Source: an uncultured bacterium (GTDB lineage Bacteria > Hydrothermota > UBA3073 > NMUJ01). From it: DNA of 26,674 nucleotides. Below are positions 88-24,342 of the stretch, one piece after another. The notes under the pieces are model-generated. The model was given only the letters and a program-made list of their open reading frames with translations. It had not been told where the DNA came from and ran no database searches. Positions within the stretch are counted from its first letter, which is position 1, and each line of letters opens with the position of its first letter. Where the stretch lies: the NCBI GenBank assembly GCA_965612795.1, contig CBFDTI010000010.1, positions 1-26,674 on the forward strand, written 5' to 3'. Made by a program: the position numbers and the translations under genes.

Positions 88-115
88 TTGACGTATACCA
101 TGTATTGCGTATTTT
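88..115 (+). promoter_or_regulatory. Putative promoter for the ATPase A-rph-rluD-miaB-GT4 unit
   Basis: TTGACG (88-93), N16, TATTTT (110-115). A leader with a GGAG Shine-Dalgarno-like site precedes ATG 169. Confidence 0.6.
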
Positions 116-168
116 AACAAAAATAAATTATTGAACATATATCTGATCGCTAACAAAGTGGAGCAAAG

Positions 169-2013
169 ATGGAAAAAGCAGGTGAGGTAATAAGAGTAGC
201 AGGTCCGTTAGTAGTAGCTAAGGGTATGGAAGGGTCGCGCATGTACGATGTGGTACGTGTGGGTGAGTTGCGGCTTATAGGTGAGATTGTTGAACTTCAA
301 GGTGATCGTGCCTCCATACAGGTATACGAGGATACAACCGGCGTAGGACCAGGTGACCCTGTTTACCCAACGTTTGCCCCTCTCACAGTGGAGTTAGGTC
401 CTGGACTCATTGGTAATATATACGATGGTGTGCAACGTCCGCTACCTAAGATTATCGAAACCACCAACAGCCCGTATATCCAAAGGGGTATCGACATACC
501 CGCACTCGATCGTACCAGAAAGTGGAAATTCACCCCTTTAAAGAATAAAGGTGACAAGGTAGTAGCTGGTGACATATTGGGTGAGGTACAGGAGACACCG
601 CTTGTGGTACATAAAATATTGGTACCACCCCATATCGAATCCGGTACATTGGTGGAGATCGTCCCCAAAGGCGAGTATTCAGTTGACGACATTATCGCCA
701 GAATCGAAACCCCCGATGGCGATAAGGAGCTCAAACTATACCATAGATGGCCAGTACGTATACCACGACCGTATAAACAGCAATTCAACCCCATCATACC
801 ATTATATACCGGGCAGCGTGTTATAGATACGTTCTTCCCGATAACAAAGGGTGGTACCGCATGTGTTCCTGGACCGTTTGGTTCCGGTAAGACTGTAATA
901 CAGCATCAGCTGGCAAAATGGGCGGACGCCGATATAGTAGTGTTCGTAGGTTGTGGTGAACGTGGCAACGAGATGACCGACATGCTTATAGAATTTGCAC
1001 ACTTAAAAGATCCGCGATCGGGCCGTCCATTGATGGAACGTACTGTGTTGATTGCTAATACTTCCAACATGCCAGTAGCTGCACGTGAAGCTTCGGTATA
1101 TACCGGGGTGACGATTGCTGAGTATTTTCGTGATATGGGTTACAATGTAGCGTTGATGGCGGATTCTACTTCAAGATGGGCGGAAGCCATGCGTGAGATA
1201 TCTGGTAGGCTTGAGGAGATGCCCGGTGAGGAGGGCTATCCCGCATACCTTGCAACCCGAGTAGCTGAGTTCTACGAGCGTGCGGGTTGGGTTGAAACAC
1301 TTGGTTCAGACAACCGGAAAGGCGCTGTATCCATTATAGGGTCGGTATCACCACCAGGTGGTGACCTTTCCGATCCCGTTGTACAGGCAACGTTGAGGGT
1401 GACGAAAGTGTTCTGGAGCCTCGAAGAGGCGCTCGCACAGGCACGTCACTTCCCCGCAATCAGTTGGCTCAGAAGTTATTCACTCTACTGGCGTAATATA
1501 GAGGGGTGGGTGAAACAGAACATAGGTGAAGATTTCCCCAACCTCATGCGTGAAGCCATGCGCATATTGGAGAAAGAGGCTGAACTACAGGAGATAGTGC
1601 GGTTGGTCGGCTATGAGGGGTTGTCATATCTCGATATATTCCTGTTGGAAGTGGCACGCTCCCTGCGTGAGGATTTCCTCTACCAGAACGCATTCGACCC
1701 TGTGGATACATATTGCTCACCTAAGAAACAGTACCATATGCTACAGATCATACTCAAACCTTACTATATCTTTCGTACAAGTTGGGATACGTTTATCGCC
1801 GAACGTGGTGCAGGCTGGCGTAGTGTGGTGACACCTACCGAGTTTGTAACCTTTGTACATAACTTAGAGTTTTGGCAGGATCTCGCCAAGCTGAGATTTA
1901 TGGAGGATGACGAGATTATGAAATCCATGGATACTATTATTAACAAGATAACCACTGAGATCAACGATAAAGTCTTCCCTTACCTTGCAGGTACAACGTT
2001 AGAGGTGAAATGA
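169..2013 (+). CDS. atpA: V/A-type ATP synthase catalytic subunit A
   Basis: N-terminal GPLVVA...VRVGELRLIGE, Walker A GPFGSGKT, GCGERGNEM, ANTSNMPVAAREAS, ADSTSRWAEA, EMPGEEGYPAYL and SPPGGDLSDPV. Contains the non-homologous region typical of V/A-type A subunits (also called ntpA). Confidence 0.97.
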   Translation: MEKAGEVIRVAGPLVVAKGMEGSRMYDVVRVGELRLIGEIVELQGDRASIQVYEDTTGVGPGDPVYPTFAPLTVELGPGLIGNIYDGVQRPLPKIIETTNSPYIQRGIDIPALDRTRKWKFTPLKNKGDKVVAGDILGEVQETPLVVHKILVPPHIESGTLVEIVPKGEYSVDDIIARIETPDGDKELKLYHRWPVRIPRPYKQQFNPIIPLYTGQRVIDTFFPITKGGTACVPGPFGSGKTVIQHQLAKWADADIVVFVGCGERGNEMTDMLIEFAHLKDPRSGRPLMERTVLIANTSNMPVAAREASVYTGVTIAEYFRDMGYNVALMADSTSRWAEAMREISGRLEEMPGEEGYPAYLATRVAEFYERAGWVETLGSDNRKGAVSIIGSVSPPGGDLSDPVVQATLRVTKVFWSLEEALAQARHFPAISWLRSYSLYWRNIEGWVKQNIGEDFPNLMREAMRILEKEAELQEIVRLVGYEGLSYLDIFLLEVARSLREDFLYQNAFDPVDTYCSPKKQYHMLQIILKPYYIFRTSWDTFIAERGAGWRSVVTPTEFVTFVHNLEFWQDLAKLRFMEDDEIMKSMDTIINKITTEINDKVFPYLAGTTLEVK

Positions 2014-2723
2014 GGCGTACACAACGTGCAGCTGACGAGTTACGCCCTATATCCATAACCATGGACTACCTCGATAATACTGAAGGCTCGGTATTCTTTC
2101 AACTGGGTAACACCATGTGTATAGCGACTGCTACACTGACAACTGATACACCTGCATTCGCACGTAACGAGGGTATCGGTTGGATATTTGCCGAGTATGG
2201 GATGTTACCACGTAGTGTGGACGAACGTATACCACGTACCCGCATAACAGGTAGGGCGATGGAGATACAGCGGTTCATAGGTAGAGCATTAAGGGCAGCA
2301 GCCGACCTATCTTTACTCAAGGGGTACAGTGTTACGATAGACTGTGACGTTATACGTGCGGATGGTAGCACCCGCTGTGCTTGTGTGAATGCTGGCTTCC
2401 TTGCACTATATCGGGCGATGCAATACGCGGTAGCACAGGGGTTGGTACCACAGAATCCTATCAAATGTTTTATAGCAGCAGTGAGTGTGGGGTTGGTAGA
2501 TGGTGAATATTTGCTCGACCTTGACTATGCAGAAGATTACAATGCGGCAGTGGATTTCAACCTTGTACTTAATGAAAAATATGAATTGGTAGAAGTTCAG
2601 GGTACTGCCGAAAAGTCAGCGTTTACATTTGACGATATGACACAGTTTTACGAGCTTGCCAAGATAGGGGTGGGCCAACTTATCACCGAGATGCGACGTG
2701 CACTCTTCCCGCAAGCTACATAG
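2010..2723 (+). CDS. rph: Ribonuclease PH (phosphorolytic tRNA 3' exonuclease)
   Basis: DELRPISI, EGSV, GW..AEYGMLPRS, GR..EIQRFIGRALRA, DCDV..ADGSTR, LDLDYAED and EVQGTAE. ATGA overlap with the upstream stop. Confidence 0.93.
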   Translation: MRRTQRAADELRPISITMDYLDNTEGSVFFQLGNTMCIATATLTTDTPAFARNEGIGWIFAEYGMLPRSVDERIPRTRITGRAMEIQRFIGRALRAAADLSLLKGYSVTIDCDVIRADGSTRCACVNAGFLALYRAMQYAVAQGLVPQNPIKCFIAAVSVGLVDGEYLLDLDYAEDYNAAVDFNLVLNEKYELVEVQGTAEKSAFTFDDMTQFYELAKIGVGQLITEMRRALFPQAT

Positions 2724-2726
2724 TTT

Positions 2727-3677
2727 ATGGAGATAATTTTTGAGCGTACGGTACGTGTAACCGACGGGATACGACTTGATAAGTATTTATATGAATCAGG
2801 TATTGGGCTATCACGTACCGCGATACAGAAGTTGATCAAGGAAGGTAAGGTACTGGTAAACGATAAACCCACGAAACCGCATAGGATATTACGGCCAGGT
2901 GATAGAGTAATTGTCAAGTATACCAAACCTGAACGTCGGATGTTGAAACCCTTCCCTATGCCGTTGGAAATAGTCTACGAAGATGATGCGTTAATCATTA
3001 TCAACAAACCCGCAGGTATAGTGACACATCCCGCACCCGGTAACCTTGACGAAACCCTCGTCAGTGGTGTGTTATACCACACGAAAGTGGAGGGTGGTGA
3101 ACCGTATCGACCTGGTGTGATACATCGGTTGGATAAAGACACGACAGGGTTGATAATATTTGCGAAAACCGCAGCTACCCACAGTAAGCTAGCGGAGATG
3201 ATGGCCAGCCGTGAGATACACCGATATTACCTCGCATTCGTATGGGGACGCTTACCCATGGAACATGGTACAATAGATGCACCTATAGGGCGGCACGTGA
3301 TCGATTCACAACGTATGGCGGTAACGCCGATAAATTCACGTGACGCTATAACGCATTTCAAGGTACTACGGTATTATAGATGGGCTACACTTGTGGAGTT
3401 GCAACTGGAGACTGGCAGGACACACCAGATACGTGTGCATATGGAGCATATAGGGTATCCGGTGATCGGTGACCCACTCTACAGTGGACGTAAGCGGCCA
3501 CCTAACCTGAACACGGATATATTCGATAGAATCATGGAGATCATGTCACGTCAGGCACTACACGCGTATAGGTTGGAGTTCATCCACCCCATAACCGGTA
3601 AGCCGATGGAGTTCGAAATACCGATGCCAGACGATATGCGTAGATTACGTGAATACTTAGAGACGTTAGATGAGTAA
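2727..3677 (+). CDS. rluD: RluA/RluD-family 23S rRNA pseudouridine synthase with S4 domain
   Basis: S4 domain (RLDKYL...SRTAIQKLIKEGKVLVN), NKPAGIVTHP, catalytic HRLDKDTTG, LETGRTHQIRVH, GDPLY and RQALHA. Confidence 0.92.
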   Translation: MEIIFERTVRVTDGIRLDKYLYESGIGLSRTAIQKLIKEGKVLVNDKPTKPHRILRPGDRVIVKYTKPERRMLKPFPMPLEIVYEDDALIIINKPAGIVTHPAPGNLDETLVSGVLYHTKVEGGEPYRPGVIHRLDKDTTGLIIFAKTAATHSKLAEMMASREIHRYYLAFVWGRLPMEHGTIDAPIGRHVIDSQRMAVTPINSRDAITHFKVLRYYRWATLVELQLETGRTHQIRVHMEHIGYPVIGDPLYSGRKRPPNLNTDIFDRIMEIMSRQALHAYRLEFIHPITGKPMEFEIPMPDDMRRLREYLETLDE

Positions 3678-4944
3678 GCGGTTCCATATCATCACATATG
3701 GGTGTCAGATGAATGTGTACGATTCACGTGTAGTGGCTGAGATATTACGTAGACAGGGGTGGGAAGAGGTCGATTCACCTGAGGTTGCTGATGTGATCAT
3801 GGTTAACACTTGTACCGTACGTGCACATGCGGAACGACGTGCATTGGGTAGGCTTAGGGTGTTGGTTGGCCTGAAGAAGCAACGCCCAGTGAAGGTAGGT
3901 GTGTTGGGTTGCATGGCGCAACATCTGAAGGAGAAAGTATTCGAACTTGTGCCGGGGTTGGATTTCGCGGTCGGACCAGACGGCTACGAACGGTTGCCTG
4001 AGCTTATCGAGGCTGGTGGTGCATATTTTCCGCCACTTACACGTTTGTATACAGGGGTACATCCACAACCTGATCGCCCATACTCTGCGTTTGTCACCAT
4101 CATGCGTGGTTGTGATAGCTTCTGCACGTATTGTATAGTGCCATATGTACGGGGTAGGGTGAGATCACGTCCGGTTAATGACATATTGGAGGAAATACAG
4201 GGGTTATTGGATCGCGGTATAAAGGAGATTATACTCATAGGGCAAAACGTGAACCTATATAATTACGATGGGATAGATTTTACGGAGCTACTCGATAAAG
4301 TAGCTGATATGGGGATCGAGAGGATAGGGTTCTTAACGTCGCATCCAAAGTATTTCGATATGCGGTTGATTGAGGTGATCGCAAGCCATCCCAACATCAT
4401 ACGTGAGTTACACCTACCTGTACAGGCGGGGTCGAATAAAATTCTGCACAGGATGAACCGCGGCTACACAGGGGAGGAATATCTCGCACTTATTGATAGA
4501 ATACGTGAAGCTATACCAGATGTGGCATTAACCACCGATATTATGGTGGGATTTCCGGGTGAAACCGAAGCCGATTTCGAAGCTACACTCGATCTCGTTA
4601 AACGCGTACGTTTCCACTACGCATATATGTTCAAGTACTCAATGCGTCCCGGTACTGTTGCAAGTAAGTGGCAGGATGATGTACCGGAGACGGAGAAATT
4701 GCGCAGGTTACGCGAACTTATACAGCTACAGAATAGCATAACACGTGAACGGCGGTTGGAGATGATCGACAACACTTATGAGGTGCTGGTTGAACGTAAA
4801 TCCAGGAAGGGTGATGAATATTTCGGACGTACGATACAGAACATACCTGTGGTTATAGACGGTGACGTGCAACCCGGCAATACGGTTAGGGTGAAGATTA
4901 TTAAGCTGGTAGGTTGTACCCCATATGGTGTTGTATCTGGTTGA
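3670..4944 (+). CDS. miaB: tRNA i6A37 methylthiotransferase MiaB (radical SAM)
   Basis: UPF0004 domain (GCQMN, NTCTVR, GCMAQ), CxxxCxxC (GCDSFCTYC), IVPYVRG, GQNVN, HLPVQAGS, VGFPGET and a C-terminal TRAM domain. Confidence 0.92.
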   Translation: MSKRFHIITYGCQMNVYDSRVVAEILRRQGWEEVDSPEVADVIMVNTCTVRAHAERRALGRLRVLVGLKKQRPVKVGVLGCMAQHLKEKVFELVPGLDFAVGPDGYERLPELIEAGGAYFPPLTRLYTGVHPQPDRPYSAFVTIMRGCDSFCTYCIVPYVRGRVRSRPVNDILEEIQGLLDRGIKEIILIGQNVNLYNYDGIDFTELLDKVADMGIERIGFLTSHPKYFDMRLIEVIASHPNIIRELHLPVQAGSNKILHRMNRGYTGEEYLALIDRIREAIPDVALTTDIMVGFPGETEADFEATLDLVKRVRFHYAYMFKYSMRPGTVASKWQDDVPETEKLRRLRELIQLQNSITRERRLEMIDNTYEVLVERKSRKGDEYFGRTIQNIPVVIDGDVQPGNTVRVKIIKLVGCTPYGVVSG

Positions 4945-6049
4945 CCCACGTAATACAACCAAACCGTACAATTTTGAGCTAATGTGGGGGTTACGACGTA
5001 ACGGGTATCCGTTCGTGTTCATTGGGTACGTACCTAAGTGGTGGGGTAAGTATTCGCCGGTCAAAGAGGTTAACCCATTTCTACCTATAAGTCGTGGTGT
5101 GTTCGAAAATAAACATATCCAGTATATGATAGCCAATATTACGCAATCGATGGAGATGTTCTTTGGGTATTTGAGGTTTATGCCGAGCTTAAAAGAAGAT
5201 GATGTGATACACTTTCTGTGGTTTACGAGCCCATCGATCGAAACACATATCGTGCCACGTGTTAGCTGGCGTGTTGGTAAACTTGTACATACTGCACATA
5301 ATCTGTTACCCCATAGGGAACGTAAGGGCGATATCAAGCTATTCAGTAACCTCTATCGATATATGGATACAGTCATTGTACATGCGGAAGCTACACGTGA
5401 TGAGTTTCATGAAATGTTCGGCACCAACACGCAGGTAGTCGTCATACCGCACGGCAATCTTGAAAATTTCTACAATACGTTTGATGAAACGGATTACCAA
5501 CAGTCGAAACGGTTTTATGAACAGCGGTTGGGTAAGCTAACCCGTCCAATATTTCTGTTTATGGGACCGATCAAGCGTTACAAAGGGTTTGAGGTACTTA
5601 TGAAGGCGGTAGATGTATTGAACCAAAAGGGGTTACAGTTCAGTGTAGTAGTAAAGGATAAGCCACGTAAGGTTATACCTAAGCTCCACTATCTGGCAGC
5701 CGAGCTACCGTATTCGCATGTTGGGTTGATATACCGGTACGTAGATGTGGTGGTATTACCACACACGAGGATATCACAGAGTGTGACATTGTTTGAAGCT
5801 GGCTATTTCAGCAAACCCGTAATCGTATCGCGTGTGGGTGGACTACCTGAAGTCGTACGCGACGGTATGGATGGGTTTGTTTTTGACAAAAATGACCACT
5901 TGCAGCTTGCGGATAGGATGGAGCACTTCATAAGGCAACCAGATATGATAAAGCTGATGGGTGAAAGCTTCAAATCACACCTAATAAAAAATTATGGTTG
6001 GGACGCAATCATCGACAAGTATGTCAGGATTTATGGGTTAACACACTAA
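4925..6049 (+). CDS. Glycosyltransferase, GT-B fold, family 4-like
   Basis: VHTAHNLLPH, VIPHG, LFMGPIKRYKG, VVVLP..SQS...EA...KPVIVSRVGGLPEVV and DGFVF. Overlaps miaB by 20 nt. Confidence 0.85.
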   Translation: MVLYLVDPRNTTKPYNFELMWGLRRNGYPFVFIGYVPKWWGKYSPVKEVNPFLPISRGVFENKHIQYMIANITQSMEMFFGYLRFMPSLKEDDVIHFLWFTSPSIETHIVPRVSWRVGKLVHTAHNLLPHRERKGDIKLFSNLYRYMDTVIVHAEATRDEFHEMFGTNTQVVVIPHGNLENFYNTFDETDYQQSKRFYEQRLGKLTRPIFLFMGPIKRYKGFEVLMKAVDVLNQKGLQFSVVVKDKPRKVIPKLHYLAAELPYSHVGLIYRYVDVVVLPHTRISQSVTLFEAGYFSKPVIVSRVGGLPEVVRDGMDGFVFDKNDHLQLADRMEHFIRQPDMIKLMGESFKSHLIKNYGWDAIIDKYVRIYGLTH

Positions 6050-7773
6050 TCGCTCGAACTGGGCTTTATTGCACCTACCTTGCATACCTGTTTGCACAGA
6101 TCGCATCCGTAACAGAGAAGTGTATCAATACGTACTTTAGCATCGGTTGGCACAATAGCGGGACAACCGAGTTCAAGGCATAGCCTACAGCCGATACATT
6201 TGGATGTATCTACCTCATATGGTGGTTTCCTTGGTGCCAGGAATATACATGGTGCACGTACGACGATGAGTGATGGTCCATCATATGAGGTTGCTTTCTG
6301 TAATGCGGATTTGATCGCATCCAAGTCGTATGCATCCACCACGTGTATGTCGTCTATACCCATTGCGCGTGCGATATCTTCTGGCATTATAGATTTTGTC
6401 TGTTCACCCATGAGTGTCCTACCAGTACCGGGATGATCTTGATGCCCTGTCATCGCAGTCGTACGGTTGTCGAGTACAACAACTGTGGCTTTGCCCTTGT
6501 TGTAGACCACATCCATGAGCTCAGGTACCCCTGTGTGTAAGAATGTGGAGTCACCAATCACTGCAACCGTTTTTCGTGCAAGCTCGGGTATGGCTTTCTC
6601 CATACCTAATGCGTTACCGATGCTTGCACCCATACAGACACAGGTATCCATGGCATCCAGTGGTGGGAACGCACCCAATGTGTAACACCCTATATCACCC
6701 GTAGCGTAGAGGTTAAGCTTATGTACCATGTAGAAGAAACCGCGATGCGGGCATCCAGGACATAGTACTGGTGGGCGTGGCGGTAGAGCGTCGAACATAA
6801 CATACTCTTTCTTATCTCTGTTGAAAGCTTCACGCAATACGGTGGGGTTGAGTTCACCGATGTTGGGTAGCAATTCCTTACCTATGACATTGATACCCAT
6901 GGCACGTATTTCGGTCTCCAGGAAGGGATCACACTCTTCGATCACATAGATCTTTTTCACCATGTTTGCAAACTCACGTATCAGCTGTCGAGGTAACGGC
7001 CATGTGAGTGATAGCTTCAAAAACGTAGCTTCTGGTAATACCTCCTTTGCATACATGTACGCGACACCGCTGGCGATGATGCCGATCTCTGTATCCCCCT
7101 TCTCTATGCGATTGTATTCGAACACGTTGGCAAACTCCTCCACCTTACGTAACCGTTCTTCAAGATATAGCCTGCGACGTCTGGCGTTCACAGGTAAAAG
7201 GTTACGTTTCGGCATATCCTTGATGTAACCGGTGGGTGAATGTTCTTCACGCCCATTGAGCTCAACAATACTTCGTGAATGTGCTATCCTTGTGGTGATA
7301 CGTAACAGGACGGGTAGGTCGAACTTCTCACTTAGGTCAAACCCTATTTTGACAAACTCCTTGGCTTCTTGGCTGTCGGAAGGTTCAAGCATCAACAACT
7401 TAGCTGCACGTGCGTAGTTGCGATTATCCTGTTCGTTCTGCGATGAGTGCATGCTGGGGTCGTCCGCCGTTACTATTATAAGGCCACCCGTTGTCCCTAT
7501 GTATGCAGCAGAAAACAGTGGATCAGCTGCTACGTTAAGCCCTACGTGCTTCATTGCTACCAATGCACGTGCACCCGCAAACGATGCACCCATAGCGACA
7601 TCGAGTGCCACCTTTTCGTTGGTCGACCATTCACAATAGATTTCGGGATACTTGGCGATATTCTCCAAAATCTCAGTACTGGGGGTACCTGGATATGCGC
7701 ACGCTACGAGACAACCACCTTCGTATGCACCACGTGCAATAGCTTCGTTACCGGAGAGCAACGCTTTCGCCAT
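6046..7773 (-). CDS. iorA: Indolepyruvate:ferredoxin oxidoreductase alpha subunit
   Basis: LSGNEAIARG, YPGTPSTE, NEKVA, MKHVGLNVAAD, DDPSMHSSQNEQD, RPPVLCPGCPHR, GDIGCYTLG, IGDSTFLH, DNRTTAMTGHQ and a C-terminal 2x[4Fe-4S] domain. Confidence 0.95.
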   Translation of the reverse strand: MAKALLSGNEAIARGAYEGGCLVACAYPGTPSTEILENIAKYPEIYCEWSTNEKVALDVAMGASFAGARALVAMKHVGLNVAADPLFSAAYIGTTGGLIIVTADDPSMHSSQNEQDNRNYARAAKLLMLEPSDSQEAKEFVKIGFDLSEKFDLPVLLRITTRIAHSRSIVELNGREEHSPTGYIKDMPKRNLLPVNARRRRLYLEERLRKVEEFANVFEYNRIEKGDTEIGIIASGVAYMYAKEVLPEATFLKLSLTWPLPRQLIREFANMVKKIYVIEECDPFLETEIRAMGINVIGKELLPNIGELNPTVLREAFNRDKKEYVMFDALPPRPPVLCPGCPHRGFFYMVHKLNLYATGDIGCYTLGAFPPLDAMDTCVCMGASIGNALGMEKAIPELARKTVAVIGDSTFLHTGVPELMDVVYNKGKATVVVLDNRTTAMTGHQDHPGTGRTLMGEQTKSIMPEDIARAMGIDDIHVVDAYDLDAIKSALQKATSYDGPSLIVVRAPCIFLAPRKPPYEVDTSKCIGCRLCLELGCPAIVPTDAKVRIDTLLCYGCDLCKQVCKVGAIKPSSSD

Positions 7774-7778
7774 AGTGT

Positions 7779-7806
7779 AAAATAACTATCGCAGGCAAAT
7801 ACACAA
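7779..7806 (-). promoter_or_regulatory. Putative leaderless promoter of iorA
   Basis: Minus strand reads TTGTGT, N16, TATTTT, ACACT, ATG. The TTG is 33 nt before the ATG and there is no SD. Confidence 0.55.
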
Positions 7807-7817
7807 CCCCGATACAC

Positions 7818-7860
7818 TTATGTAAAGCATAATTTACATAATGTTAAGTTTACTTGACAT
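7818..7860. promoter_or_regulatory. Two tandem 20-bp palindromic operators, probably for XRE autoregulation
   Basis: ATGTAAAGCATAATTTACAT (7820-7839; perfect 9-bp arms TTATGTAAA/TTTACATAA across 7818-7841) and ATGTTAAGTTTACTTGACAT (7841-7860). The second covers the TTGACA. Confidence 0.75.
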
Positions 7861-7880
7861 AATGAGGTATTCGGTATATT
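7854..7880 (+). promoter_or_regulatory. Putative leaderless promoter of the XRE operon
   Basis: TTGACA (7854-7859), N15, TATATT (7875-7880), N6, ATG (7887). Confidence 0.7.
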
Positions 7881-7886
7881 GTCATG

Positions 7887-8096
7887 ATGAAGCTTATATG
7901 TCATCTACGTAGGGTGAGGTTTTTGCATGGTGAGGTGACGCAGCAGCAGCTTGCGCAGGCTGTTGGTGTATCACGTCAAACGATAATCGCTATTGAGAAA
8001 GGCAAGTATACGCCATCGGTTTTACTTGCATTGAAGATAGCGAAATATTTTGGTCTTAAGGTAGAGGATATTTTTGAGCTGAAGGAGGACCCATGA
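7887..8096 (+). CDS. Small XRE/Cro-family helix-turn-helix transcriptional regulator
   Basis: TQQQLAQAVGVSRQTIIAIEKGKYTPSVLLALKIAKYF..VEDIF is the typical ~65-70 aa XRE signature. The second ATG of ATGATG (7887) fits the promoter geometry; 7884 is the alternative. Confidence 0.92.
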   Translation: MKLICHLRRVRFLHGEVTQQQLAQAVGVSRQTIIAIEKGKYTPSVLLALKIAKYFGLKVEDIFELKEDP

Positions 8097-8746
8097 AGTT
8101 ATTGGCATTGATACTATCCATACTCACTGTAGGGTTTGTGCTTTTGGCTTTGGTTTCGCCTTGGTTTTTGCTTGCTGCGCTCGTAACTGGCCTGATCTTA
8201 CCGGTTTTGCGTTTCGCTGGTGTAGTAAGGGATCAAGACGAGATGCACCGCTATGTGGATTACAGGTCATCACATATTGCGTATTACTTAATGTTGTCGA
8301 TCGCTATAATTACACTCATGTTGACAACCCTATCCAGGCATGAGGTCTCTCCCGAACTTACCCTGCTGATCCTCGTACCCCTGATCACAAAGTTTTACCT
8401 CCAATCCATACCCACCCGTAACCTTGCACGTACCGGTATTTACTTAGGCTCAATAGTCGGTGGTGCCTGGCTACTATTCGCTATATTATCGCATGGATTT
8501 ACCATCGAAGGGGTGATCGAGTCTTCCATCGGCTTAAGCTTACTGTTATTTTCGTTGCTTGGGTTACGTTATCGGCTCATCTCCGCCAGCTTGTTGATAG
8601 CGATGGGTTTGGTAGCTACGTGGTTCGTACTGCGATCACATATCTTAACCGTCACTAAGCTGCTTGTGGGGTTATTCCTGCCACTACCTGCATTTGTTGC
8701 AGGTACCAGCTTGTTAATTTCTAAATTCAAGGAGGAAATCCCATGA
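8093..8746 (+). CDS. Multi-pass membrane protein with a DUF2178-like DE motif
   Basis: About 7-8 hydrophobic segments and a loop reading RDQDEMHRYVDYRSSHIAY. Strong SD (AAGGAGG) and ATGA overlap with the XRE gene. Confidence 0.75.
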   Translation: MKLLALILSILTVGFVLLALVSPWFLLAALVTGLILPVLRFAGVVRDQDEMHRYVDYRSSHIAYYLMLSIAIITLMLTTLSRHEVSPELTLLILVPLITKFYLQSIPTRNLARTGIYLGSIVGGAWLLFAILSHGFTIEGVIESSIGLSLLLFSLLGLRYRLISASLLIAMGLVATWFVLRSHILTVTKLLVGLFLPLPAFVAGTSLLISKFKEEIP

Positions 8747-9177
8747 TACAGCTAACCCTGATTTCATCCTTATGGTTAGGTGTACGTATCACTATAACGG
8801 GTGCGATAATACCATCACTCGTGATAGCAGTTGACCATACCGAATACGTAAGTACCAGTGTATCGGTGGGCGGTTTCCCCATATCTCACGGTTTATTACT
8901 ACGTAGTGAGGTTGACATCCGTTACACCGCTGTAGCGGAAGCATTAACTCCACTGTTTTCAACTGGGTTTGGGTTCATGTCAACCCTCGGGAGCGATGAT
9001 TCCAAAACCATCGTCGATATACATCCAAGGTTGGGCCTCCTCTACCGTGGTCTATCCGGTCGCCTGCTATCGTTTGATTGCGAACTTTTATGGTTTCCAC
9101 CTTATTTAAATCGCACGAAACTCAACCGTCCATTCGCTCCCGCCATTAACACCGAGTTCCTCTATAAGTTGCGGTGA
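8743..9177 (+). CDS. Hypothetical protein, possibly a small exported beta-barrel
   Basis: SD AAGGAGG and ATGA overlap. Short hydrophobic N-terminus, alternating beta-strand-like segments and a C-terminal EFLYKLR. Confidence 0.6.
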   Translation: MIQLTLISSLWLGVRITITGAIIPSLVIAVDHTEYVSTSVSVGGFPISHGLLLRSEVDIRYTAVAEALTPLFSTGFGFMSTLGSDDSKTIVDIHPRLGLLYRGLSGRLLSFDCELLWFPPYLNRTKLNRPFAPAINTEFLYKLR

Positions 9178-9193
9178 ACACCCCGATGATAGC

Positions 9194-9221
9194 TTGTTTA
9201 TTGGAAGTTCAACCTTACTTT
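9194..9221 (+). promoter_or_regulatory. Putative leaderless promoter of tatD
   Basis: TTGTTT (9194), N16, TACTTT (9216-9221), N5, ATG (9227). The TTG is 33 nt before the ATG. Confidence 0.5.
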
Positions 9222-9226
9222 ATAGG

Positions 9227-9997
9227 ATGCGACTCATCGACACACATGCACACCTACAAGGGCCCGAATTCAACCGCGACCTCGAACCCGTACTTGCACG
9301 TGCAGTAAAAGCTGGTGTCCAGCTGATCATAAACGTAGGGTATGACCTGAACTCCTCCAAACGTGCCATCCAACTCTATCGCAAATACCCCATGTTACCA
9401 CCAGCTGTGGGTATACACCCACATGATGCAAAGACATGGTCGGATGAGGTTGAATCCTCACTCCGCAGGTGGGCAGGTTCACCCCACGTAGTTGCTATAG
9501 GTGAGATAGGGCTCGACTTTTACAAAGACTATTCACCACGTGCACAACAGTTGCAGGTGCTCGAGAAGCAACTCCAGATAGCGCTCGATTACAGGTTACC
9601 CGTCATCCTACACGTACGCAATGCGTACATGGATATACTTAATGTTTTAAAGAACTTCCCCTCACTACGTGGTGTACTGCATGCATTCTCCGGTAGCCCC
9701 GCCATCGCTGATAAGTTTGTATCCATGGGTTGGCACATAGGTGTGGGTGGTGTCATCACATTCTCCAACGCACGTAAGTTACAGGAAGTGGTTCAACGCA
9801 TACCGGTTGAATACATAGTCCTGGAGACAGATGCACCATTCCTTACACCACACCCATATCGAGGTAAAAGGAACGAACCTTCATACCTTAAATTTATCTG
9901 CCAGCAGCTGGCTGCTATTCTGCAACGTACCCCAGATGAGGTTGCTGAAATCACCTACTTGAATGCCAAACGCCTATTTCCGCGTTTAAGAAGCTGA
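9227..9997 (+). CDS. tatD: TatD-family metal-dependent hydrolase/nuclease
   Basis: LIDTHAHL, GIHPH, AIGEIGLDF, ILHVR, VLHAF, LETDAPFL and RGKRNEP. The start is moved to ATG 9227 (MRLIDTHAH). Confidence 0.93.
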   Translation: MRLIDTHAHLQGPEFNRDLEPVLARAVKAGVQLIINVGYDLNSSKRAIQLYRKYPMLPPAVGIHPHDAKTWSDEVESSLRRWAGSPHVVAIGEIGLDFYKDYSPRAQQLQVLEKQLQIALDYRLPVILHVRNAYMDILNVLKNFPSLRGVLHAFSGSPAIADKFVSMGWHIGVGGVITFSNARKLQEVVQRIPVEYIVLETDAPFLTPHPYRGKRNEPSYLKFICQQLAAILQRTPDEVAEITYLNAKRLFPRLRS

Positions 9998-11182: not shown

Positions 11183-11188
11183 CCTTCT

Positions 11189-11215
11189 AAGATAAGAGTT
11201 TTAAATTAGCGTCAA
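11189..11215 (-). promoter_or_regulatory. Putative leaderless promoter of porA
   Basis: Minus strand reads TTGACG (11215-11210), N15, TATCTT (11194-11189), AGAAGG, ATG (11182). Confidence 0.7.
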
Positions 11216-11261
11216 GGATATCTGTTATTTACAGGTTAACTTCGGGATAAAGCTTGCCCTT

Positions 11262-17400: not shown

Positions 17401-17792
17401 CCTTCACTGTAGTTTTTGAGTGTCTCCTTATCTATGCGTGGTTTATAATAGAAGCCCTCAAGATATGCGAGGCTGGTCAGCTTCATCAAGTTCTTGTAAC
17501 CACGTTCGTTCATCGCCAACACTGTAAGATGGAAGTTCGATATTCCACCAACTGTTTTCTTATCTCGCATGGAGGTAGGTGCTATGTAGAACTCTTCACC
17601 TATTATCGGTTTCAGGCCCGCCTTCATCATAGCATCATAGAATTCAATTACACCGAACATATTACCGTGATCAGTGATGGCGATTGCACGATATTTATAG
17701 TCGATGGCTTTCTCGATTAACTTATCAATACGACATGCACCATCCAATAGACTATAATCAGTATGTACATGTAAGTGTATAAATTTATCCAT
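14436..17792 (-). CDS. dnaE: DNA polymerase III alpha subunit
   Basis: PHP domain (HLHVHTDYSLLDG, AITDHG, ATNDVH), GPGRGSAVGS, FERFLNP.R...PDVDIDF, GLLKIDILGL, YGFNKSHSA and an OB fold. No intein-sized insertion. Confidence 0.97.
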   Translation of the reverse strand: MDKFIHLHVHTDYSLLDGACRIDKLIEKAIDYKYRAIAITDHGNMFGVIEFYDAMMKAGLKPIIGEEFYIAPTSMRDKKTVGGISNFHLTVLAMNERGYKNLMKLTSLAYLEGFYYKPRIDKETLKNYSEGLIGMSGCLKGEIPYYLLRNDYETAYKVAKEYLEIFGHNRFYLEMMRLGFKENDIVNAGLVKLSRDLGIPIVATNDVHFIDRTDKEAHDALLAIQTNTYIDETDRFRMESEEIYFKSPDEMVGLFSDHPEAIENTLKIAEQCNLLIELDPVNAHLPSCELPEGFDTPSAYLEHLAWEGFRRRYPTGNKKAEERLKYELSVINKLNFASYFLIINDIVQSAKTMGVPVGPGRGSAVGSLTLYVLGVTEIDPLKYNLLFERFLNPSRVSLPDVDIDFGDEQRDKIIAHVEERYGKNNVAQIITFGTMASRAVVRDVGRILRIPYGEVDRIAKKIPMGMSLEQAMEDKELRKLIASKDEYKRMIEIAKRLEGVARHVSTHAAGIVITPKELTEFVPLYKAPDGNIMTQYSMKSLEKIGLLKIDILGLRTLTVIEKTKQYLKERGIEIDKIPLNDSKTFRLLQRGETVGVFQLESEGMRSILKRLKPTNFKDIMAVLALYRPGPMEQKETFIKRKRGEEPVTYLHPMLEPILKETYGVILYQEQVIQIAHQVAGFSLSEADLLRRAMGKKEKEVMRKMEEKFVEGAKKKGVDESTARKIFEYMEPFAGYGFNKSHSAGYALIAYWTSYLKANHPVEFMAALLTSEMNDTDRIRILLSECRRMGIEILPPDINESDYEFKPVDGKIRFGLGAIKNVGKKAIDSIVKERKRGKFSSFNDFMQRRDVKNINKKAMENLIKAGSFDNLNPDRYRLLQMLENKASQQLSLFTETMTDEKVDESESASVLSMEREALGFYLSGHPLNKYEDVIDAFTTTTIAELHHYGEAESVSIAGIVTRVKVIKNKKGQKMAFAELEDMTGKVEVTVFPDLFGEREIAKGDELLVKGKVAHQEGEEAPRIIADKIVSLQEARKRLTSWIDLYLNIVTTTEDDLNKLHQLLMGSSGVTEVRLNFVKNGETLYTLRPRKILVSPDDRLIKRLQNLLGKPNVRLRSVRW

Positions 17793-17802
17793 TAACCTTT
17801 AA

Positions 17803-17830
17803 ATGTTATCCGAAAACCTTCGCTCATCAA
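17803..17830 (-). promoter_or_regulatory. Putative promoter of the dnaE operon (very short leader)
   Basis: Minus strand reads TTGATG (17830-17825), N16, TAACAT (17808-17803), N10, ATG (17792). Confidence 0.45.
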
Positions 17831-17845
17831 TAGAGATACAGCTGC

Positions 17846-17872
17846 TTGACTGTTGGATTTTATTTTTATCTT
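17846..17872 (+). promoter_or_regulatory. Putative promoter of the tRNA-Gly/tRNA-Leu/obg unit
   Basis: TTGACT (17846-17851), N15, TATCTT (17867-17872), ending 19 nt before the tRNA-Gly. Confidence 0.65.
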
Positions 17873-17891
17873 TATACAGAAGGATATAAAA

Positions 17892-17963
17892 GCGGGAGTA
17901 GCTCAGTGGTAGAGCACAACCTTGCCAAGGTTGGGGTCGCGGGTTCAAATCCCGTCTCCCGCT
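17892..17963 (+). tRNA. tRNA-Gly (GCC), CCA not encoded
   Basis: Acceptor stem GCGGGAG/CTCCCGC, D-arm GCTCAGTGGTAGAGC, anticodon arm CAACC-TT-GCC-AA-GGTTG, T-loop GTTCAAATC and discriminator T. Confidence 0.97.
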
Positions 17964-17964
17964 T

Positions 17965-19430
<1,466 letters not shown>

Positions 19431-19436
19431 GAAAGG

Positions 19437-19463
19437 TTGACCATCTCCCATGGGCTGTATTTT
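19437..19463 (+). promoter_or_regulatory. Putative promoter of the str operon
   Basis: TTGACC (19437-19442), N15, TATTTT (19458-19463). The rpsL ATG is 10 nt later with no SD. Confidence 0.6.
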
Positions 19464-19473
19464 TAATAATGAA

Positions 19474-19854
19474 ATGCCAACTATTAACCAACTAATAAGG
19501 TACGGTAGGAAGCCAAAGAAACGTAAGTCTAAGGCACCGGCGTTGGAAGGGTCACCCCAAAAGCGTGGTGTATGTTTGCGTGTTTATGTAGTGAACCCCA
19601 AGAAACCAAACTCTGCTATGCGTAAGGTGGCACGTGTACGTCTGTCTAATGGTAGGGAGGTCATCGCTTATATACCGGGCGAAGGTCACAATTTACAGGA
19701 GTACTCCAACGTACTTGTGCGTGGTGGCCGTGTCAAGGATTTGCCAGGTGTGAGGTACCACATAGTTCGTGGTGTATATGATGCAGCTGGTGTCGAAGGT
19801 AGAAAGAAGAGCCGCTCAAAGTATGGCACCAAGAGACCTAAAGAGGAGAAATGA
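19474..19854 (+). CDS. rpsL: 30S ribosomal protein S12
   Basis: [44 protein letters not shown] and RSKYG. The true start is the MPT at 19474. Confidence 0.98.
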
Positions 19855-20315
19855 GGCGCAAACGTGCGGAACCACGTGAGATACCACCCGACCCCAAATA
19901 CGGTAGTGTATTGGTACAGAAGTTGATCAATTGCGTCATGTGGGACGGCAAGAAACGATTAGCTGAAAAGATCGTCTATAAAGCGTTTGAACTCATTGAG
20001 AAGCGTACTAACCAAAACGCACTCACTGTGTTTGAAACCGCACTCGAAAATGTGAAACCCATCATGGAGGTAAGGCCACGTCGTGTAGGAGGTGCCACCT
20101 ATCAGGTGCCGGTGCCTGTGCCACCGCGGCGCCGTGTATCACTTGCAATAAGGTGGATCATTCAAGCTGCACGTGCAAGGAAAGGTGCTCCCATGTATCA
20201 GAAGCTGGCCGAAGAGCTAATATTGGCCAGCCGCAAGGAGGGTGCCGCCTACAAGAAGAAGGAAGATACCCACAGGATGGCAGAAGCCAACAAGGCTTTT
20301 GCCCATTTTAGATGA
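19851..20315 (+). CDS. rpsG: 30S ribosomal protein S7
   Basis: [28 protein letters not shown] and [23 protein letters not shown] and ATGA overlap. Confidence 0.98.
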
Positions 20316-22360
20316 TCGATCTTCGCAACATCCGCAATATTAGCATTATTGCGCACATAGACGCAGGTAAGACGACAACTACTGAACGTATCTTATACTA
20401 TACCGGCAAGATACAGAGGATGGGTGATGTCGACGAAGGTACCGCTACTATGGACTATTGGGAACAGGAGCGTGAACGTGGTATCACAATAATTGCAGCC
20501 ACCACCACATGTTATTGGCGTGATACACGTATAAATATTGTTGATACACCAGGTCATGTGGATTTCACTGCAGAGGTGGAGAAGTCATTAATGGTGATCG
20601 ATGGTGCCGTGGTTATCTTCAGTGCAGTTGAGGGGGTTGAGTCACAATCCGAAACTGTTTGGTATCAAGCTGATCGCCACAATTTGCCACGTTTGGTCTA
20701 TATCAACAAACTCGATCGCATAGGCGCAGATTACGAATCCGTTATAAAGATGATGGAGGAGCGTCTCAATATCGTAACATTACCGTTACAGTTACCAATA
20801 GGTAAAGAAGCTGAATTTCATGGTGTGGTCGACCTCGTATCCGAACGTGCACTTATTTGGCAGCTGGGTACTGATGGTTCACAGTATGATGTAACAGATA
20901 TACCGGAACCCTTTATTTCCGAAAGCAAGGTGGCACGCGAAGAGTTAATCGAGAAGCTAGCCGATCTAGACGATGAGTTTGCTGAACTATACCTCGAAAA
21001 GGGTGAAATATCACCAACCTCCATCAAACATGCTATCCGACGTGTAACCCTATCTACAAAGGCGTTCCCGGTATATCTTGGTGCATCGTTACGTAACGTA
21101 GGGGTGCAACCATTACTCGACGGTATAGTCGACTATCTACCATCGCCGGTCGAACGTCCTCCGATAAAAGGTGTCTCAATCAAAACTCACAAGGAGGTAG
21201 AACGTGCACCCAACCCTGAAAGCGCATTTCTGGGCAAAGTATTCAAGATACAGGCTACCCCACACGGTGATCTCGGTTACCTGAGAATTTATGCAGGTAA
21301 GTTAAAAAAGGGCGATGTGGTGCTAAACACTACACGTAACGTAAAAGAAAGGATTTCACAGATATTTCTATTGCATGCGAATGAACGTACACCTGTCAAA
21401 GTAGCCCATACAGGTGAAATAGTAGGGATAATGGGTATCAAAGCAACCCGTACGGGGGATACACTTGCGGCACCATCCAGCCCCATCGTGCTGGGTAGTA
21501 TGAAGTTCCCCGATCCCGTCATCTACGTCAGTATAGAGCCTAAGACACTTGCTGAAGAGAGTAAACTCGAGTCCGTACTCGAAAGGTTGGTACATGAAGA
21601 CCCAACCCTTAGGGTGCGGCTGGATGAGGAGACTGGCCAACGTTTACTCGAAGGTATGGGTGAGCTACACCTTGAGGTGATCATCGAACGCTTGCGACGT
21701 GAGTTTAAGCTCGACGTACGTACTGGTAAACCACAGGTAGCGTATCGTGAGACTATCACTGAAACTGGTACAGGGGAAGCTAAGGTTGATCGTGACGTCG
21801 GCGGTAAACACCACTACGCATATGTGAAGCTGCAGGTGGAACCACTACCACGTGGCGAATACTTTGCATTTGTGAACCAAGTACCTGATATACCTGCAAC
21901 CTTTTTAAACGCAATCGAACGTGGTATACGTGAAAATATGGGGGTGGGCCCGCTCGCCGGTTATCCGGTTATCGATGTAAAAGCTACGTTGGTAGGGGTT
22001 GATATACATCCAACAGATTCAAGTGAACTTGCCTTCCTTGAGGCGAGTGCACTCGCATTTAGGAAAGCACTCGGTACCGCCAAACCGATCCTGCTCGAAC
22101 CCATCATGAAGCTCGAAATAATTATACCCATGGAATATCTCGGTGTGATATTGGATGACCTCAATGCACGTGGTGGCAAAATAAAAGTGATGGAAAATCG
22201 TGGCCCCCACTATGTGGTTATAGCCACATGTCCGTTACGTAAGCTGTTTGGCTACGCAACAACTATAAGGTCGCTAACCCAGGGTAGGGGAATCTATATG
22301 ATGGAGTTTGAAACGTACGAACCACTAACCGAAAGCATACCGGGGTTAACAACTACATAG
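20312..22360 (+). CDS. fusA: Elongation factor G (divergent, possibly EF-G2/recycling type)
   Basis: [61 protein letters not shown] and LLEPIMKLE; located in the str operon. Confidence 0.93.
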
Positions 22361-22387
22361 TTGACAATTACGTCTATCCCACAATTT
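22361..22387 (+). promoter_or_regulatory. Putative leaderless promoter of the second GT4 gene
   Basis: TTGACA directly after the fusA stop (22361-22366), N15, CAATTT (22382-22387), N6, ATG (22394). Confidence 0.6.
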
Positions 22388-22393
22388 TCTAAG

Positions 22394-23539
22394 ATGGTTC
22401 CTTACATCCGAAATAAGAGATTGCGAATCCTGGTAATTAATTGGCAAGATAGAAATAACCCACTTTATGGAGGAGCAGAAGTGCATCTTCATGAAATATT
22501 CAGTAGAATCGTACAATACGGACATGAGGTTACCTTATTGTGTAGTTCGTTCCCCAGTGCGAAAAGAGTAGAAGTGATCGATGGCATAAAAGTATTACGT
22601 GTAGGTAAACGCTATAATTTCAATTTCTGTGTACCTATGGTCATAAAGCGCCTTCTGAGAAAGAAGCGATACGACGTTGTTGTAGATGATATAAATAAGA
22701 TCCCTTTTTTCACCCCCTTATACATAAAACATATCCCCATATTAGCGATCTTACATCATCTTTTTGGATGCAGCATCTATAGGGAATTAAACCCTATTCT
22801 CGCCACATATGTGAGGTTAGGCGAGAAGCTAATCCCTCTGGTTTATAGGAATGTGGTCTTCTCAGTCGTATCTGAAAGCACCAAAAACGAGCTTGTAAAA
22901 TTAGGGATACCAGAAAAAAACGTTTTCATCATTTATAACGGTATCCCCAAAGAACTAAAACCCGATCCTCTCAAAAAGTCGGCAACACCTCTTATTCTGC
23001 TATACGGTAGGGTCAAAAGGTATAAATGTCCCGAATTTTGTCTGTATGCGATGAAGAAGGTGATCGCTCACATACCGGATGTAAAGCTTGTTGTTATGGG
23101 GACGGGTGACTATTTGCCAGCCCTTATGAGGTTATCCCAAAAGTTGCAGTTACATGAACACGTGGAATTCTTAGGATACGTACCTGAAGATGAAAAGCTA
23201 AAAGTTCTACAGAGCAGTTGGGTGATGGTAAACACTTCTTCACGAGAAGGTTGGGGCATCTCTGTAATAGAGGGGAACGCATGTGGTGTTCCTATCATAG
23301 CGAGTGATTCACCCGGCCTTCGTGACGCAGTAGTTCACGGGAAAACGGGCTTCCTTGTGAAACATGGCGATATTGAAGAATTAGCTCAAAAGATCATATT
23401 AATTCTGAAAGACAAGCAGCTGCGGGAGAAATTATCCCAAAATGCATTGGAGTGGGCTTCCCAATTTGATTGGGAGAGGGCTGCACGTGAAACACTAGAC
23501 CTTATAGAGTACACGATATCCAAGTCCCGTAGTAATTAA
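22394..23539 (+). CDS. Glycosyltransferase family 4
   Basis: RILVINWQD..NP..GGAE, VSESTK, YGRVKRYK, SSREGWGISVIEGNACGVP and PGLRDAV..GKTG. The start is moved from TTG 22361 to ATG 22394. Confidence 0.92.
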   Translation: MVPYIRNKRLRILVINWQDRNNPLYGGAEVHLHEIFSRIVQYGHEVTLLCSSFPSAKRVEVIDGIKVLRVGKRYNFNFCVPMVIKRLLRKKRYDVVVDDINKIPFFTPLYIKHIPILAILHHLFGCSIYRELNPILATYVRLGEKLIPLVYRNVVFSVVSESTKNELVKLGIPEKNVFIIYNGIPKELKPDPLKKSATPLILLYGRVKRYKCPEFCLYAMKKVIAHIPDVKLVVMGTGDYLPALMRLSQKLQLHEHVEFLGYVPEDEKLKVLQSSWVMVNTSSREGWGISVIEGNACGVPIIASDSPGLRDAVVHGKTGFLVKHGDIEELAQKIILILKDKQLREKLSQNALEWASQFDWERAARETLDLIEYTISKSRSN

Positions 23540-23556
23540 TAGTGCAACCCGTTACT

Positions 23557-24273
23557 TTATGAGTTTGGTAGTGTGTCACGTTTATGGAGTAATATCACAT
23601 TCGTCCATTTATTATGGTATTTCAACATCCTATGGGGAGGGTCAGCTTCGTACCAGAAGTAGTGACTGGTACGGTTCACACGTAAGCAAATTTTGATACC
23701 TTCCTTAACTCCGTACGATAGGGTTACAGGTTCGGTATCACATACCTCGATACTTACGGGTACAAACCGTGCCGCAAATGTGCTCATCAGATAAAAGCGT
23801 GCTTTATAGCCGGTGTAATAAGGTATGGTACGTAATAGGTGGTAGATCTCCTCGTTATCATAGATGGGGCGCCTTATGTGGATGATACGTTCACGCGATC
23901 CAGTGGATGGTACCATTCGCACGACGACTTTTGATGTACCATATTTGGCCTCGACAAGTAGCGGGTTCTTGCCACCTGTCAAATATTTATGACATAGGAG
24001 TGGATTAAGCAAACTATCGAGTACCAAATATGTACTATCACGTAAGGTGACTGTATCTTCTCTGATGTTTACCAAACTGGTAATTTTATAACCACCATCT
24101 ATGCTCTCTATGGTAGTTGACATACTGCCGATCACTGTATCATGGCGTATTATCTCGTAATTGGAGTGCTCAACTTTCGTCCATGGTATACGCTCTATGT
24201 TTACTCCTTCATAATGAGGAGGCTCGCACGCAATAAAAATCGACATTATTACTATAGGCCACAAATTCTTCAT
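23557..24273 (-). CDS. Putative lipoprotein, DUF3108-like beta-rich protein
   Basis: Signal peptide with lipobox (MKNLWPIVIMSIFIA-C) and beta-strand-rich sequence, with YDNEE.Y.LLR.IP and a C-terminal FWYE....RMLKY. The family assignment is tentative. Confidence 0.65.
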   Translation of the reverse strand: MKNLWPIVIMSIFIACEPPHYEGVNIERIPWTKVEHSNYEIIRHDTVIGSMSTTIESIDGGYKITSLVNIREDTVTLRDSTYLVLDSLLNPLLCHKYLTGGKNPLLVEAKYGTSKVVVRMVPSTGSRERIIHIRRPIYDNEEIYHLLRTIPYYTGYKARFYLMSTFAARFVPVSIEVCDTEPVTLSYGVKEGIKICLRVNRTSHYFWYEADPPHRMLKYHNKWTNVILLHKRDTLPNS

Positions 24274-24279
24274 CGATTT

Positions 24280-24306
24280 AAAATAATCAATTCATACGAT
24301 CATCAA
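24280..24306 (-). promoter_or_regulatory. Putative leaderless promoter of the lipoprotein gene
   Basis: Minus strand reads TTGATG (24306-24301), N15, TATTTT (24285-24280), AAATCG, ATG (24273). Confidence 0.65.
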
Positions 24307-24315
24307 CTCGATATA

Positions 24316-24342
24316 TTGACACAAAACCAAAAATGATAGCTT
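24316..24342 (+). promoter_or_regulatory. Putative promoter of the C25 peptidase gene (leadered)
   Basis: TTGACA (24316-24321), N15, TAGCTT (24337-24342). Strong SD AAGGAGGT at 24393-24400. Confidence 0.65.

Follow-up and report, generated by a model that had tools for sequence, protein, structure and literature searches.

Promoters of the Escherichia coli σ70 type have a spacer of 17 ± 1 bp and a TATAAT −10 element, and this spacing is treated as a fixed trait of primary-sigma holoenzymes. E. coli tolerates spacers of 15–19 bp with a peak at 17 bp (PMC8695583); in a survey of 49 species, whose named lineages do not include WOR-3, Kuo et al. found predominantly 17-bp spacers, and their per-species spacer histograms (Supplementary Fig. 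S3B) may include another short-spacer species (PMC12641261); promoters of the Bacteroidota sigma factor σABfr carry TTTG at −33 and TAnnTTTG at −7 (PMC7366714); and the −10 element of Chlorobaculum tepidum reads TA[ATC][ATC][AT]T (10.1101/172254). A literature search, with most subscription papers outside its scope, returned nothing on WOR-3 promoters or sigma factor, or on a housekeeping sigma with a 15-bp spacer. Here we analyse contig C10 (‘the window’, the whole stretch of 26,674 nucleotides) from the 1.42-Mb genome of an uncultured WOR-3 bacterium (G000; 128 contigs, 99.5% complete), in which a preliminary description had read eleven transcription-unit starts as housekeeping promoters of shortened reach. 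We find that this 15-bp grammar is real and of a sigma-70 promoter kind, which is surprising to specialists; its cause may lie in the sigma factor, the core polymerase or a cofactor.

Promoter grammar across the genome

The pattern TTGACn-Nk-TAnnTT occurs 18, 136, 62, 24 and 16 times in G000 at k = 14 to 18 (18, 131, 61, 23 and 16 times when the window contig is left out), with about 10–37 occurrences at the other values of k from 8 to 27. At 120 of the 136 N15 sites the −10 element lies in called non-coding DNA, and at 109 a same-strand start follows within 150 nt (gene boundaries came from a simple in-house caller, which gave 1352 genes). Expectation–maximization (EM) on 555 upstream regions, with the window contig excluded, started from the E. 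coli consensus TTGACA/TATAAT and a flat spacer prior of 13–20; the fit assigned 190 sites to 15 bp, 117 to 16 bp and 9 to 17 bp, with the consensus TTGAC(A)-N15/16-TAWWTT. The fitted −35 frequencies were T.99, T.96, G.94, A.83, C.80 and A.50; in the −10 element T−12 stood at.89, A−11 at 1.0 and T−7 at.90, and the fifth position was T (.76), not A. The genome-wide two-block spacer histogram, which had been proposed as a check, thus has its mode at 15 and its second class at 16, with 17 nearly absent, and the shortened reach and, for this genus, the T-rich −10 element were both borne out.

In the same held-out regions, TTGACn-N15-TAnnnT was found in 113 of 555, whereas 20 dinucleotide shuffles averaged 1.4 and never exceeded 5 (an excess of about 80-fold). 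Pairs of the type TTG/GAC..TAT/TTT at the same geometry ranked next after Shine–Dalgarno–ATG pairs in an unseeded gapped-trimer scan, and the 47 stable-RNA genes had a TTGA site at N15 in 12 cases, at N16 in 7 and at N17 in 1. Because T and A are enriched just before the hexamer, most 17-bp matches are explained as shifted reads of 15-bp sites. No TTTG tail was found after TAnnTT in G000, where the next base is T (44%) or A (41%) and the one after it G in 8%, and a search of G000 for TTG-N-TAnnTTTG gave no peak at 15. The TTGAC(A)-N15(16)-TAWWTT sites are likely to be the housekeeping promoters of the organism.

Both boxes are conserved in a congener, G070 (91% identity), of whose roughly 130 contigs 40 each contributed one stretch to the comparison, 407 kb in total. 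Across 67 orthologous sites, changes numbered 0 of 268 in TTGA, 3 of 134 at T−12/A−11 and 0 of 67 at T−7, against 186 of 1027 in the spacers; of four spacer indels, three interconvert 15 and 16 bp, and the remaining one, at a poor site, deletes 3 bases. On this alignment evidence, the −35 and −10 boxes are under purifying selection.

Start codons of open reading frames (ORFs) of at least 80 aa peak 6 nt past the hexamer, at 39 of 233 N15 sites, with no other offset above 15; for N16 sites the same offset accounts for 16 of 135. This peak fits leaderless transcripts and would place the −10 element at −12 to −7 and TTG at −33, about where the preliminary description had put it, so that initiation very probably occurs 6–7 nt past the −10 element. 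Many genes of G000, with their start codon 6 nt past the −10, look leaderless.

Spacer lengths in related lineages

We scanned 121 WOR-3 genomes at 15, 16 and 17 bp, with the reversed pattern as control. Enrichment at 15 bp, 4- to 5-fold, was confined to this order, represented in the survey by three genomes, G000 (205/113/77 matches at 15/16/17 versus 51/48/60 in the control), G070 (189/101/65 versus 40/37/39) and G001, a member of the sister family (524/138/168 versus 107/107/109); these are kin and not independent, and so represent one evolutionary event. All of the remaining 118 genomes stayed below 2-fold at 15 bp except G078, where the counts are small (24 versus 11) and the mode is 16 (43 versus 5). 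The mode is 17 bp in families f4, f8, f12, f22 and f26, and 16 bp in, for example, f9, f15, f17, f23, f24 and f27; f3, f5, f6 and f31 peak at both, and f29 (G107) has a 17/18 mode with many 18-bp sites. In partial samples of class outgroups, f4 (179 kb) used 17 only and G050 (200 kb) used 16 and 17. Outside WOR-3, none of 40 genomes of Bacteroidota, Gemmatimonadota, Latescibacterota, Krumholzibacteria and Spirochaetota reached 2-fold at 15 bp (highest, 100 versus 62), with a scan pattern that requires the TTGAC mostly missing from Bacteroidota promoters.

A promoter fit covering 775 kb of the roughly 2.2 Mb of G001 gave TTGACA-N15-TAWAAT, with EM counts of 169, 22 and 0 at 15, 16 and 17 bp and start codons peaking 5 nt downstream. 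Since G001 combines N15 with TTGACA and TAWAAT, the T-rich −10 element is separate from the short spacer, the former being found in this genus alone and the latter throughout the order. G001 genes likewise look leaderless, the start codon standing 5–6 nt past the −10 element at 67 of 156 N15 sites. Its promoters also have a TG step at spacer positions 12–13 from the −35, in 36 of 130 15-bp sites and 11 of 22 16-bp sites, which is in register with the −35 and not with the −10 as in a normal extended −10. A shifted extended −10 (TGnn) was rejected as a fingerprint of the short sigma, the step being present in those 36 of 130 G001 sites but in only 8 of 162 in G000 and 2 of 41 Bacteroidota loci.

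Loss of rpoD and the short sigma factor

Two region-2 matches were found in G000, a 275-aa sigma factor (P0001; C15:3357-4184) and an extracytoplasmic-function (ECF)-like fragment. P0001 has regions 1.2, 2, 3 and 4 with an intact RERVRQ −35 helix, lacks region 1.1, and scores 184 against TIGR02393, under the cut-off of 354; it is the only full-size sigma-70-family gene of the genome and, for that reason, the presumed primary sigma. A 99%-identical sigma is present in two WOR-3 records (L033 and L034), which places G000 in that phylum. Three long RpoD queries against G000 matched the short sigma only, with no canonical rpoD. Long RpoD occurs in 18 of 19 other genomes of the class (G100 lacks a match) and in none of the three of this genus; in G000 and G070 dnaG lies mid-contig and is followed by DUF4159, whereas rpoD follows it in G001, G050, G075 and G015.

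In one FastTree tree (49 sequences, 234 columns), the short sigma clusters with short sigmas of Bacteroidota, Gemmatimonadota, Latescibacterota and Spirochaetota (support 0.959), so that the suspected Bacteroidota link holds: the sole group-1-like sigma of the genome falls in the short-sigma clade that contains the Bacteroidota sigmas. The degP–sigma–M23 locus that holds it (gene labels read from the sequences) is kept across the class; the short sigma is thus the native, vertically inherited WOR-3 paralogue, and its takeover would be independent of that in Bacteroidota. In short sigmas of the class the σ3–σ4 linker is 2–3 residues shorter (in f4, 9), and the canonical C-terminal helix, which in σ70 packs on the β flap, is missing.

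The long RpoD retained by G001 is the most eroded of the 19 WOR-3 RpoDs that we compared. Over E. coli residues 433–465 (residue roles in RpoB, RpoC and sigma are given throughout in E. coli numbering) it has 44% identity to the consensus, versus 69–91% in the others, and 21 of its conserved columns are changed, versus 1–10 in the other 18. Its terminal branch is the longest (0.78; next, 0.38), while the branch of G001 RpoB is ordinary (0.26). Family f9 shows what looks like the reverse of this genus, an apparent loss of the short paralogue, with one sigma-query match per genome (12 of 12) and long RpoD in the 8 listed.

What sets the short reach

We favour, with reasonable but limited confidence, the explanation that the housekeeping TTGAC(A)-N15(16)-TAWWTT promoters are read by a short, Bacteroidota-type sigma that took over after the loss of rpoD. 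Its parts differ in strength. That the short sigma is the reader of these promoters in this genus is highly likely, judging from gene content; that it both became the housekeeping factor and determines the reduced reach is an even call, and so is a date for the swap in the ancestor of the order. In that ancestor the short sigma would have become the housekeeping factor and, as its shorter σ3–σ4 linker and missing C-terminal helix suggest, would have seated σ4 about 2 bp closer to σ2. RpoD would then have decayed and been lost, surviving in G001 as a demoted relic, and the drift to a T-rich −10 would have come afterwards, only in the family of this genus.

Several observations weigh against this explanation. 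In G001 a long RpoD is retained and the −10 element (TAWAAT) is of RpoD type; an adapted RpoD could therefore be what reads its 15-bp promoters, and the accelerated change in that protein would fit either adaptation or decay. A 16-bp mode occurs in family f9 with one sigma-query match and a long RpoD, which indicates that WOR-3 spacers shift without a sigma swap. A sigma of the short type does not force 15 bp, since the short sigmas of Bacteroidota use 16–17; short sigmas with the same two features, a shortened linker and no C-terminal helix, are found in class members with 16–17-bp modes, and no conserved-column substitution was exclusive to the short sigmas of G000 and G001. Finally, RNA-library contigs (a related strain, mostly 90–99% alike, in four metatranscriptome runs of a single sample) span the promoters as DNA would and cannot show starts; contig ends at 7873 in runs X1 and X2, and one X1 end at 19461, lie upstream of predicted starts and were not used as evidence either way.

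The strongest competitor, which we regard as possible though rather unlikely, is that the core polymerase (β flap, β′ dock or zipper) or an order-specific cofactor sets the 15-bp reach, such that any sigma-70-type factor would read 15 bp and the loss of rpoD and the T-rich −10 would be later, separate events. It accounts well for G001, which shares the 15-bp mode with no residual 17-bp class while keeping RpoD and an RpoD-like −10, and for RpoD-bearing WOR-3, among which modes of 16, 17 and 17/18 differ by family. The 15-bp genomes also have 10 RpoB and 5 RpoC (residues 1–400) substitutions in common, including β K890R, F1265A, M1304V/T and K1328R/S and β′ E42D and S353A, which we take to lie near the σ4 seat. 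The changes in G001 RpoD, among them L540I, F563Y and R603K in region 4, also speak for it. Ten substitutions are, however, inside the range of 3–19 for control clades, and the alignment of the β flap called for by the preliminary description gave no order-specific indel in the flap-tip helix, nor was one seen in the β′ zipper, zinc-binding domain or clamp helices (for RpoC, G000 and G001 only were compared; G025 and G008 gave no anchor in the flap alignment, and the partial G122 RpoB was dropped from the tree and the substitution counts). Shortening of the β-i9 insert (equivalent to E. coli 957–1035) is strong in this genus and partial in G001, G022, G040, G050 and G075, and 16/17-bp relatives share it.

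As for a cofactor, no stand-alone CarD was found in five genomes, each having a single PF02559 match in a Mfd-sized ORF of 839–1063 aa. A further point against a core-set reach comes from a putative σ28 (FliA) promoter upstream of the G001 flagellin gene (L238:1402-1428; TTAAGTTA-N11-GTCGAAAT), a single site that keeps the canonical σ28 spacer of 11 nt; loose FliA-type patterns were not clearly enriched genome-wide (119 versus 93, and 25 versus 32, in the control), the flagellin site alone fitting. The RNA polymerase α subunit is full length (330 aa). The rpoB (G000:C18:3117-6668) and rpoC (G000:C31:6972-11075) genes are unlinked, each beside other genes; rpoC adjoins rpoB in 27 of the 30 loci compared, and the three exceptions are this genus.

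Thermophily or positively supercoiled DNA, with reverse gyrase favouring shorter spacers and the proteins unchanged, is a very improbable cause. Reverse gyrase is present in all three 15-bp genomes and in none of 17 other class genomes surveyed, but also in 20 more WOR-3 (23 of 121), whose modes are 16, 17, 17/18 or unclear and never 15, so that the enzyme is insufficient as a cause and was rejected; Gyrase A is also encoded in G000 and G070, and a 2-bp shift amounts to about 70° of twist, above any plausible change in supercoiling by our own estimate. There is similarly scant probability that a canonical or divergent rpoD is the true reader and is merely missing from the assembly. The 128 contigs, the completeness of the congeners (87% and 66%) and the lack of a long-RpoD match in G100 as well, a class member outside the genus (84%), leave some room for this, against which stand the 99.5% completeness of G000, the lack of rpoD in all three genomes of the genus, and a dnaG–rpoD junction that in two genomes is intact DNA with another gene there. 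Chance, misread 17-bp promoters or a transcription-factor site, to which three weakly scoring window sites of the eleven and a strong antisense site inside a gene (24117) might point, are already largely refuted by counts well above those in shuffles, replication in held-out regions, selection restricted to the boxes, the fixed start-codon distance, the presence of the motif at tRNA, rpsL and dnaE units, and the reading of most 17-bp matches as shifted 15-bp ones.

Promoters in the window

All eleven sites of the preliminary description are exact in letters, coordinate, strand and spacer, and every one precedes a gene or tRNA unit (Table 1). Its label TAnnTT applies to nine of them, the exceptions being 22361 (CAATTT) and 17830 (TAACAT); its remark that, among the seven N15 sites, only 7854 offers a TAnnnT at 17 bp is correct. 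Under the EM model, trained outside the window, eight of the eleven rank ninth or higher among 159,834 window placements, and 17830, 7806 and 9194 are weak scorers, the last two still having the gene ATG 5 nt past the hexamer. An ATG opens the gene 5–6 nt past the hexamer at 6 of the 11 sites. At 7854 and 17846 the spacer is 16 bp in the congener G070.

Table 1 Predicted promoters in the window, with rank among 159,834 placements
Promoter	Position	Strand	Downstream feature	Rank
TTGACG-N16-TATTTT	88..115	+	V-type ATPase subunit A, ATG 169	3
TTGTGT-N16-TATTTT (weak-scoring)	7779..7806	-	iorA, ATG 7773, 5 nt downstream, likely leaderless	46
TTGACA-N15-TATATT	7854..7880	+	small Cro/C1-type helix–turn–helix (HTH) gene, ATGs 3 and 6 nt downstream	1
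TTGTTT-N16-TACTTT (weak-scoring)	9194..9221	+	tatD, ATG 9227, 5 nt downstream, likely leaderless	55
TTGACG-N15-TATCTT	11189..11215	-	PorA-like oxidoreductase alpha subunit, ATG 11182, 6 nt downstream, likely leaderless	4
TTGATG-N16-TAACAT (weaker)	17803..17830	-	dnaE, ATG 17792, 10 nt downstream	21
TTGACT-N15-TATCTT	17846..17872	+	tRNA-Gly (17891) 18 nt on, then tRNA-Leu, obgE	5
TTGACC-N15-TATTTT	19437..19463	+	rpsL-rpsG-fusA, ATG 19474	2
TTGACA-N15-CAATTT	22361..22387	+	directly 3′ of fusA stop; glycosyltransferase, ATG 22394, 6 nt downstream, likely leaderless	7
TTGATG-N15-TATTTT	24280..24306	-	238-aa unknown ORF, ATG 24273, 6 nt downstream, likely leaderless	9
TTGACA-N15-TAGCTT	24316..24342	+	C25-family peptidase gene, ATG 24404 with AAGGAGG before it	8

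Two further window sites score highly: TTGACA-N15-TATCAT at 24117-24143 (+), antisense within the 23557-24273 ORF (rank 6), and TTGACA-N16-GATTTT at 13-40 (−), directed off the contig end (rank 10). Two operons are scattered, V-ATPase subunit A (169-2723) having its own promoter with RNase PH next, and rpsL-rpsG-fusA (19474-23539) being followed by the glycosyltransferase gene and not by tuf. The C25-family (gingipain-like) peptidase gene, with a propeptide, is cut at the contig end (24404-26674). In the related strain of the metatranscriptomes, runs X1, X2 and X4 skip 650 bases at 8090-8741, where a membrane-protein ORF (8093-8746) lies.

Discussion

That tRNA, ribosomal and replication genes stand on 15-bp spacers means that the promoter ruler can be reset genome-wide. 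If true, the offset from the near-universal geometry is about 70° at 15 bp, and in the sister family it occurs even though the TTGACA/TAWAAT boxes are textbook ones. The cause of spacer length can be tested with the help of close relatives that use 16, 17 and 17/18 bp, and the WOR-3 series from 15 to 18 could, if it holds, locate the molecular ruler of bacterial promoters. The chances are evenly balanced that the order moved its whole housekeeping set to 15 bp through replacement of RpoD by the short paralogue, independently of Bacteroidota, with two stages kept, an eroding RpoD in one family and its loss in the other. The housekeeping sigma would then have been replaced for a second time, apparently independently, by a short paralogue of the Fibrobacteres–Chlorobi–Bacteroidetes (FCB) type, with an intermediate stage preserved. 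Such a sigma could provide promoters of an orthogonal class, and these genomes will be misread by promoter predictors that assume 17 bp.

The promoters resemble those of canonical σ70/σA (E. coli RpoD) in the −35 hexamer, the T−12/A−11/T−7 core and, probably, a discriminator of about 6 nt, and the short sigma keeps the RER(V/I)RQ helix of region 4.2; they differ in the spacer mode of 15 bp and, in this genus, in the TAWWTT −10 element. Compared with group 1 RpoD, the short sigma lacks region 1.1, falls below the TIGR02393 cut-off and has no dnaG–rpoD synteny.

With Bacteroidota σABfr it has in common membership of the same short-sigma clade, an FL/ISYAVWWIRQ region 2.3–2.4 and a missing canonical RpoD, and the promoters share T at the fifth −10 position and, probably, TTG at about −33. 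Unlike Bacteroidota promoters, these keep the full TTGAC, have no TTTG tail and use a hexamer-equivalent spacer of 15 and not 16–17 bp; the C-terminal helix of the Bacteroidota sigmas is absent or replaced in the short sigma here. In 56 Bacteroidota loci, TTG...TAnnTTTG peaked at hexamer spacers of 16 and 17 (41 and 45 counts, with 16 at 15 bp), so 15 bp lies beyond both known grammars; the earlier idea of a form intermediate between the two does not hold, 15 being shorter than both and the T-rich −10 a separate trait. WOR-3 families with a 16-bp mode have the same TTGAC and TAnnnT boxes and, like this order, a short spacer fixed in the lineage; theirs is one base longer, and they have kept the long RpoD.

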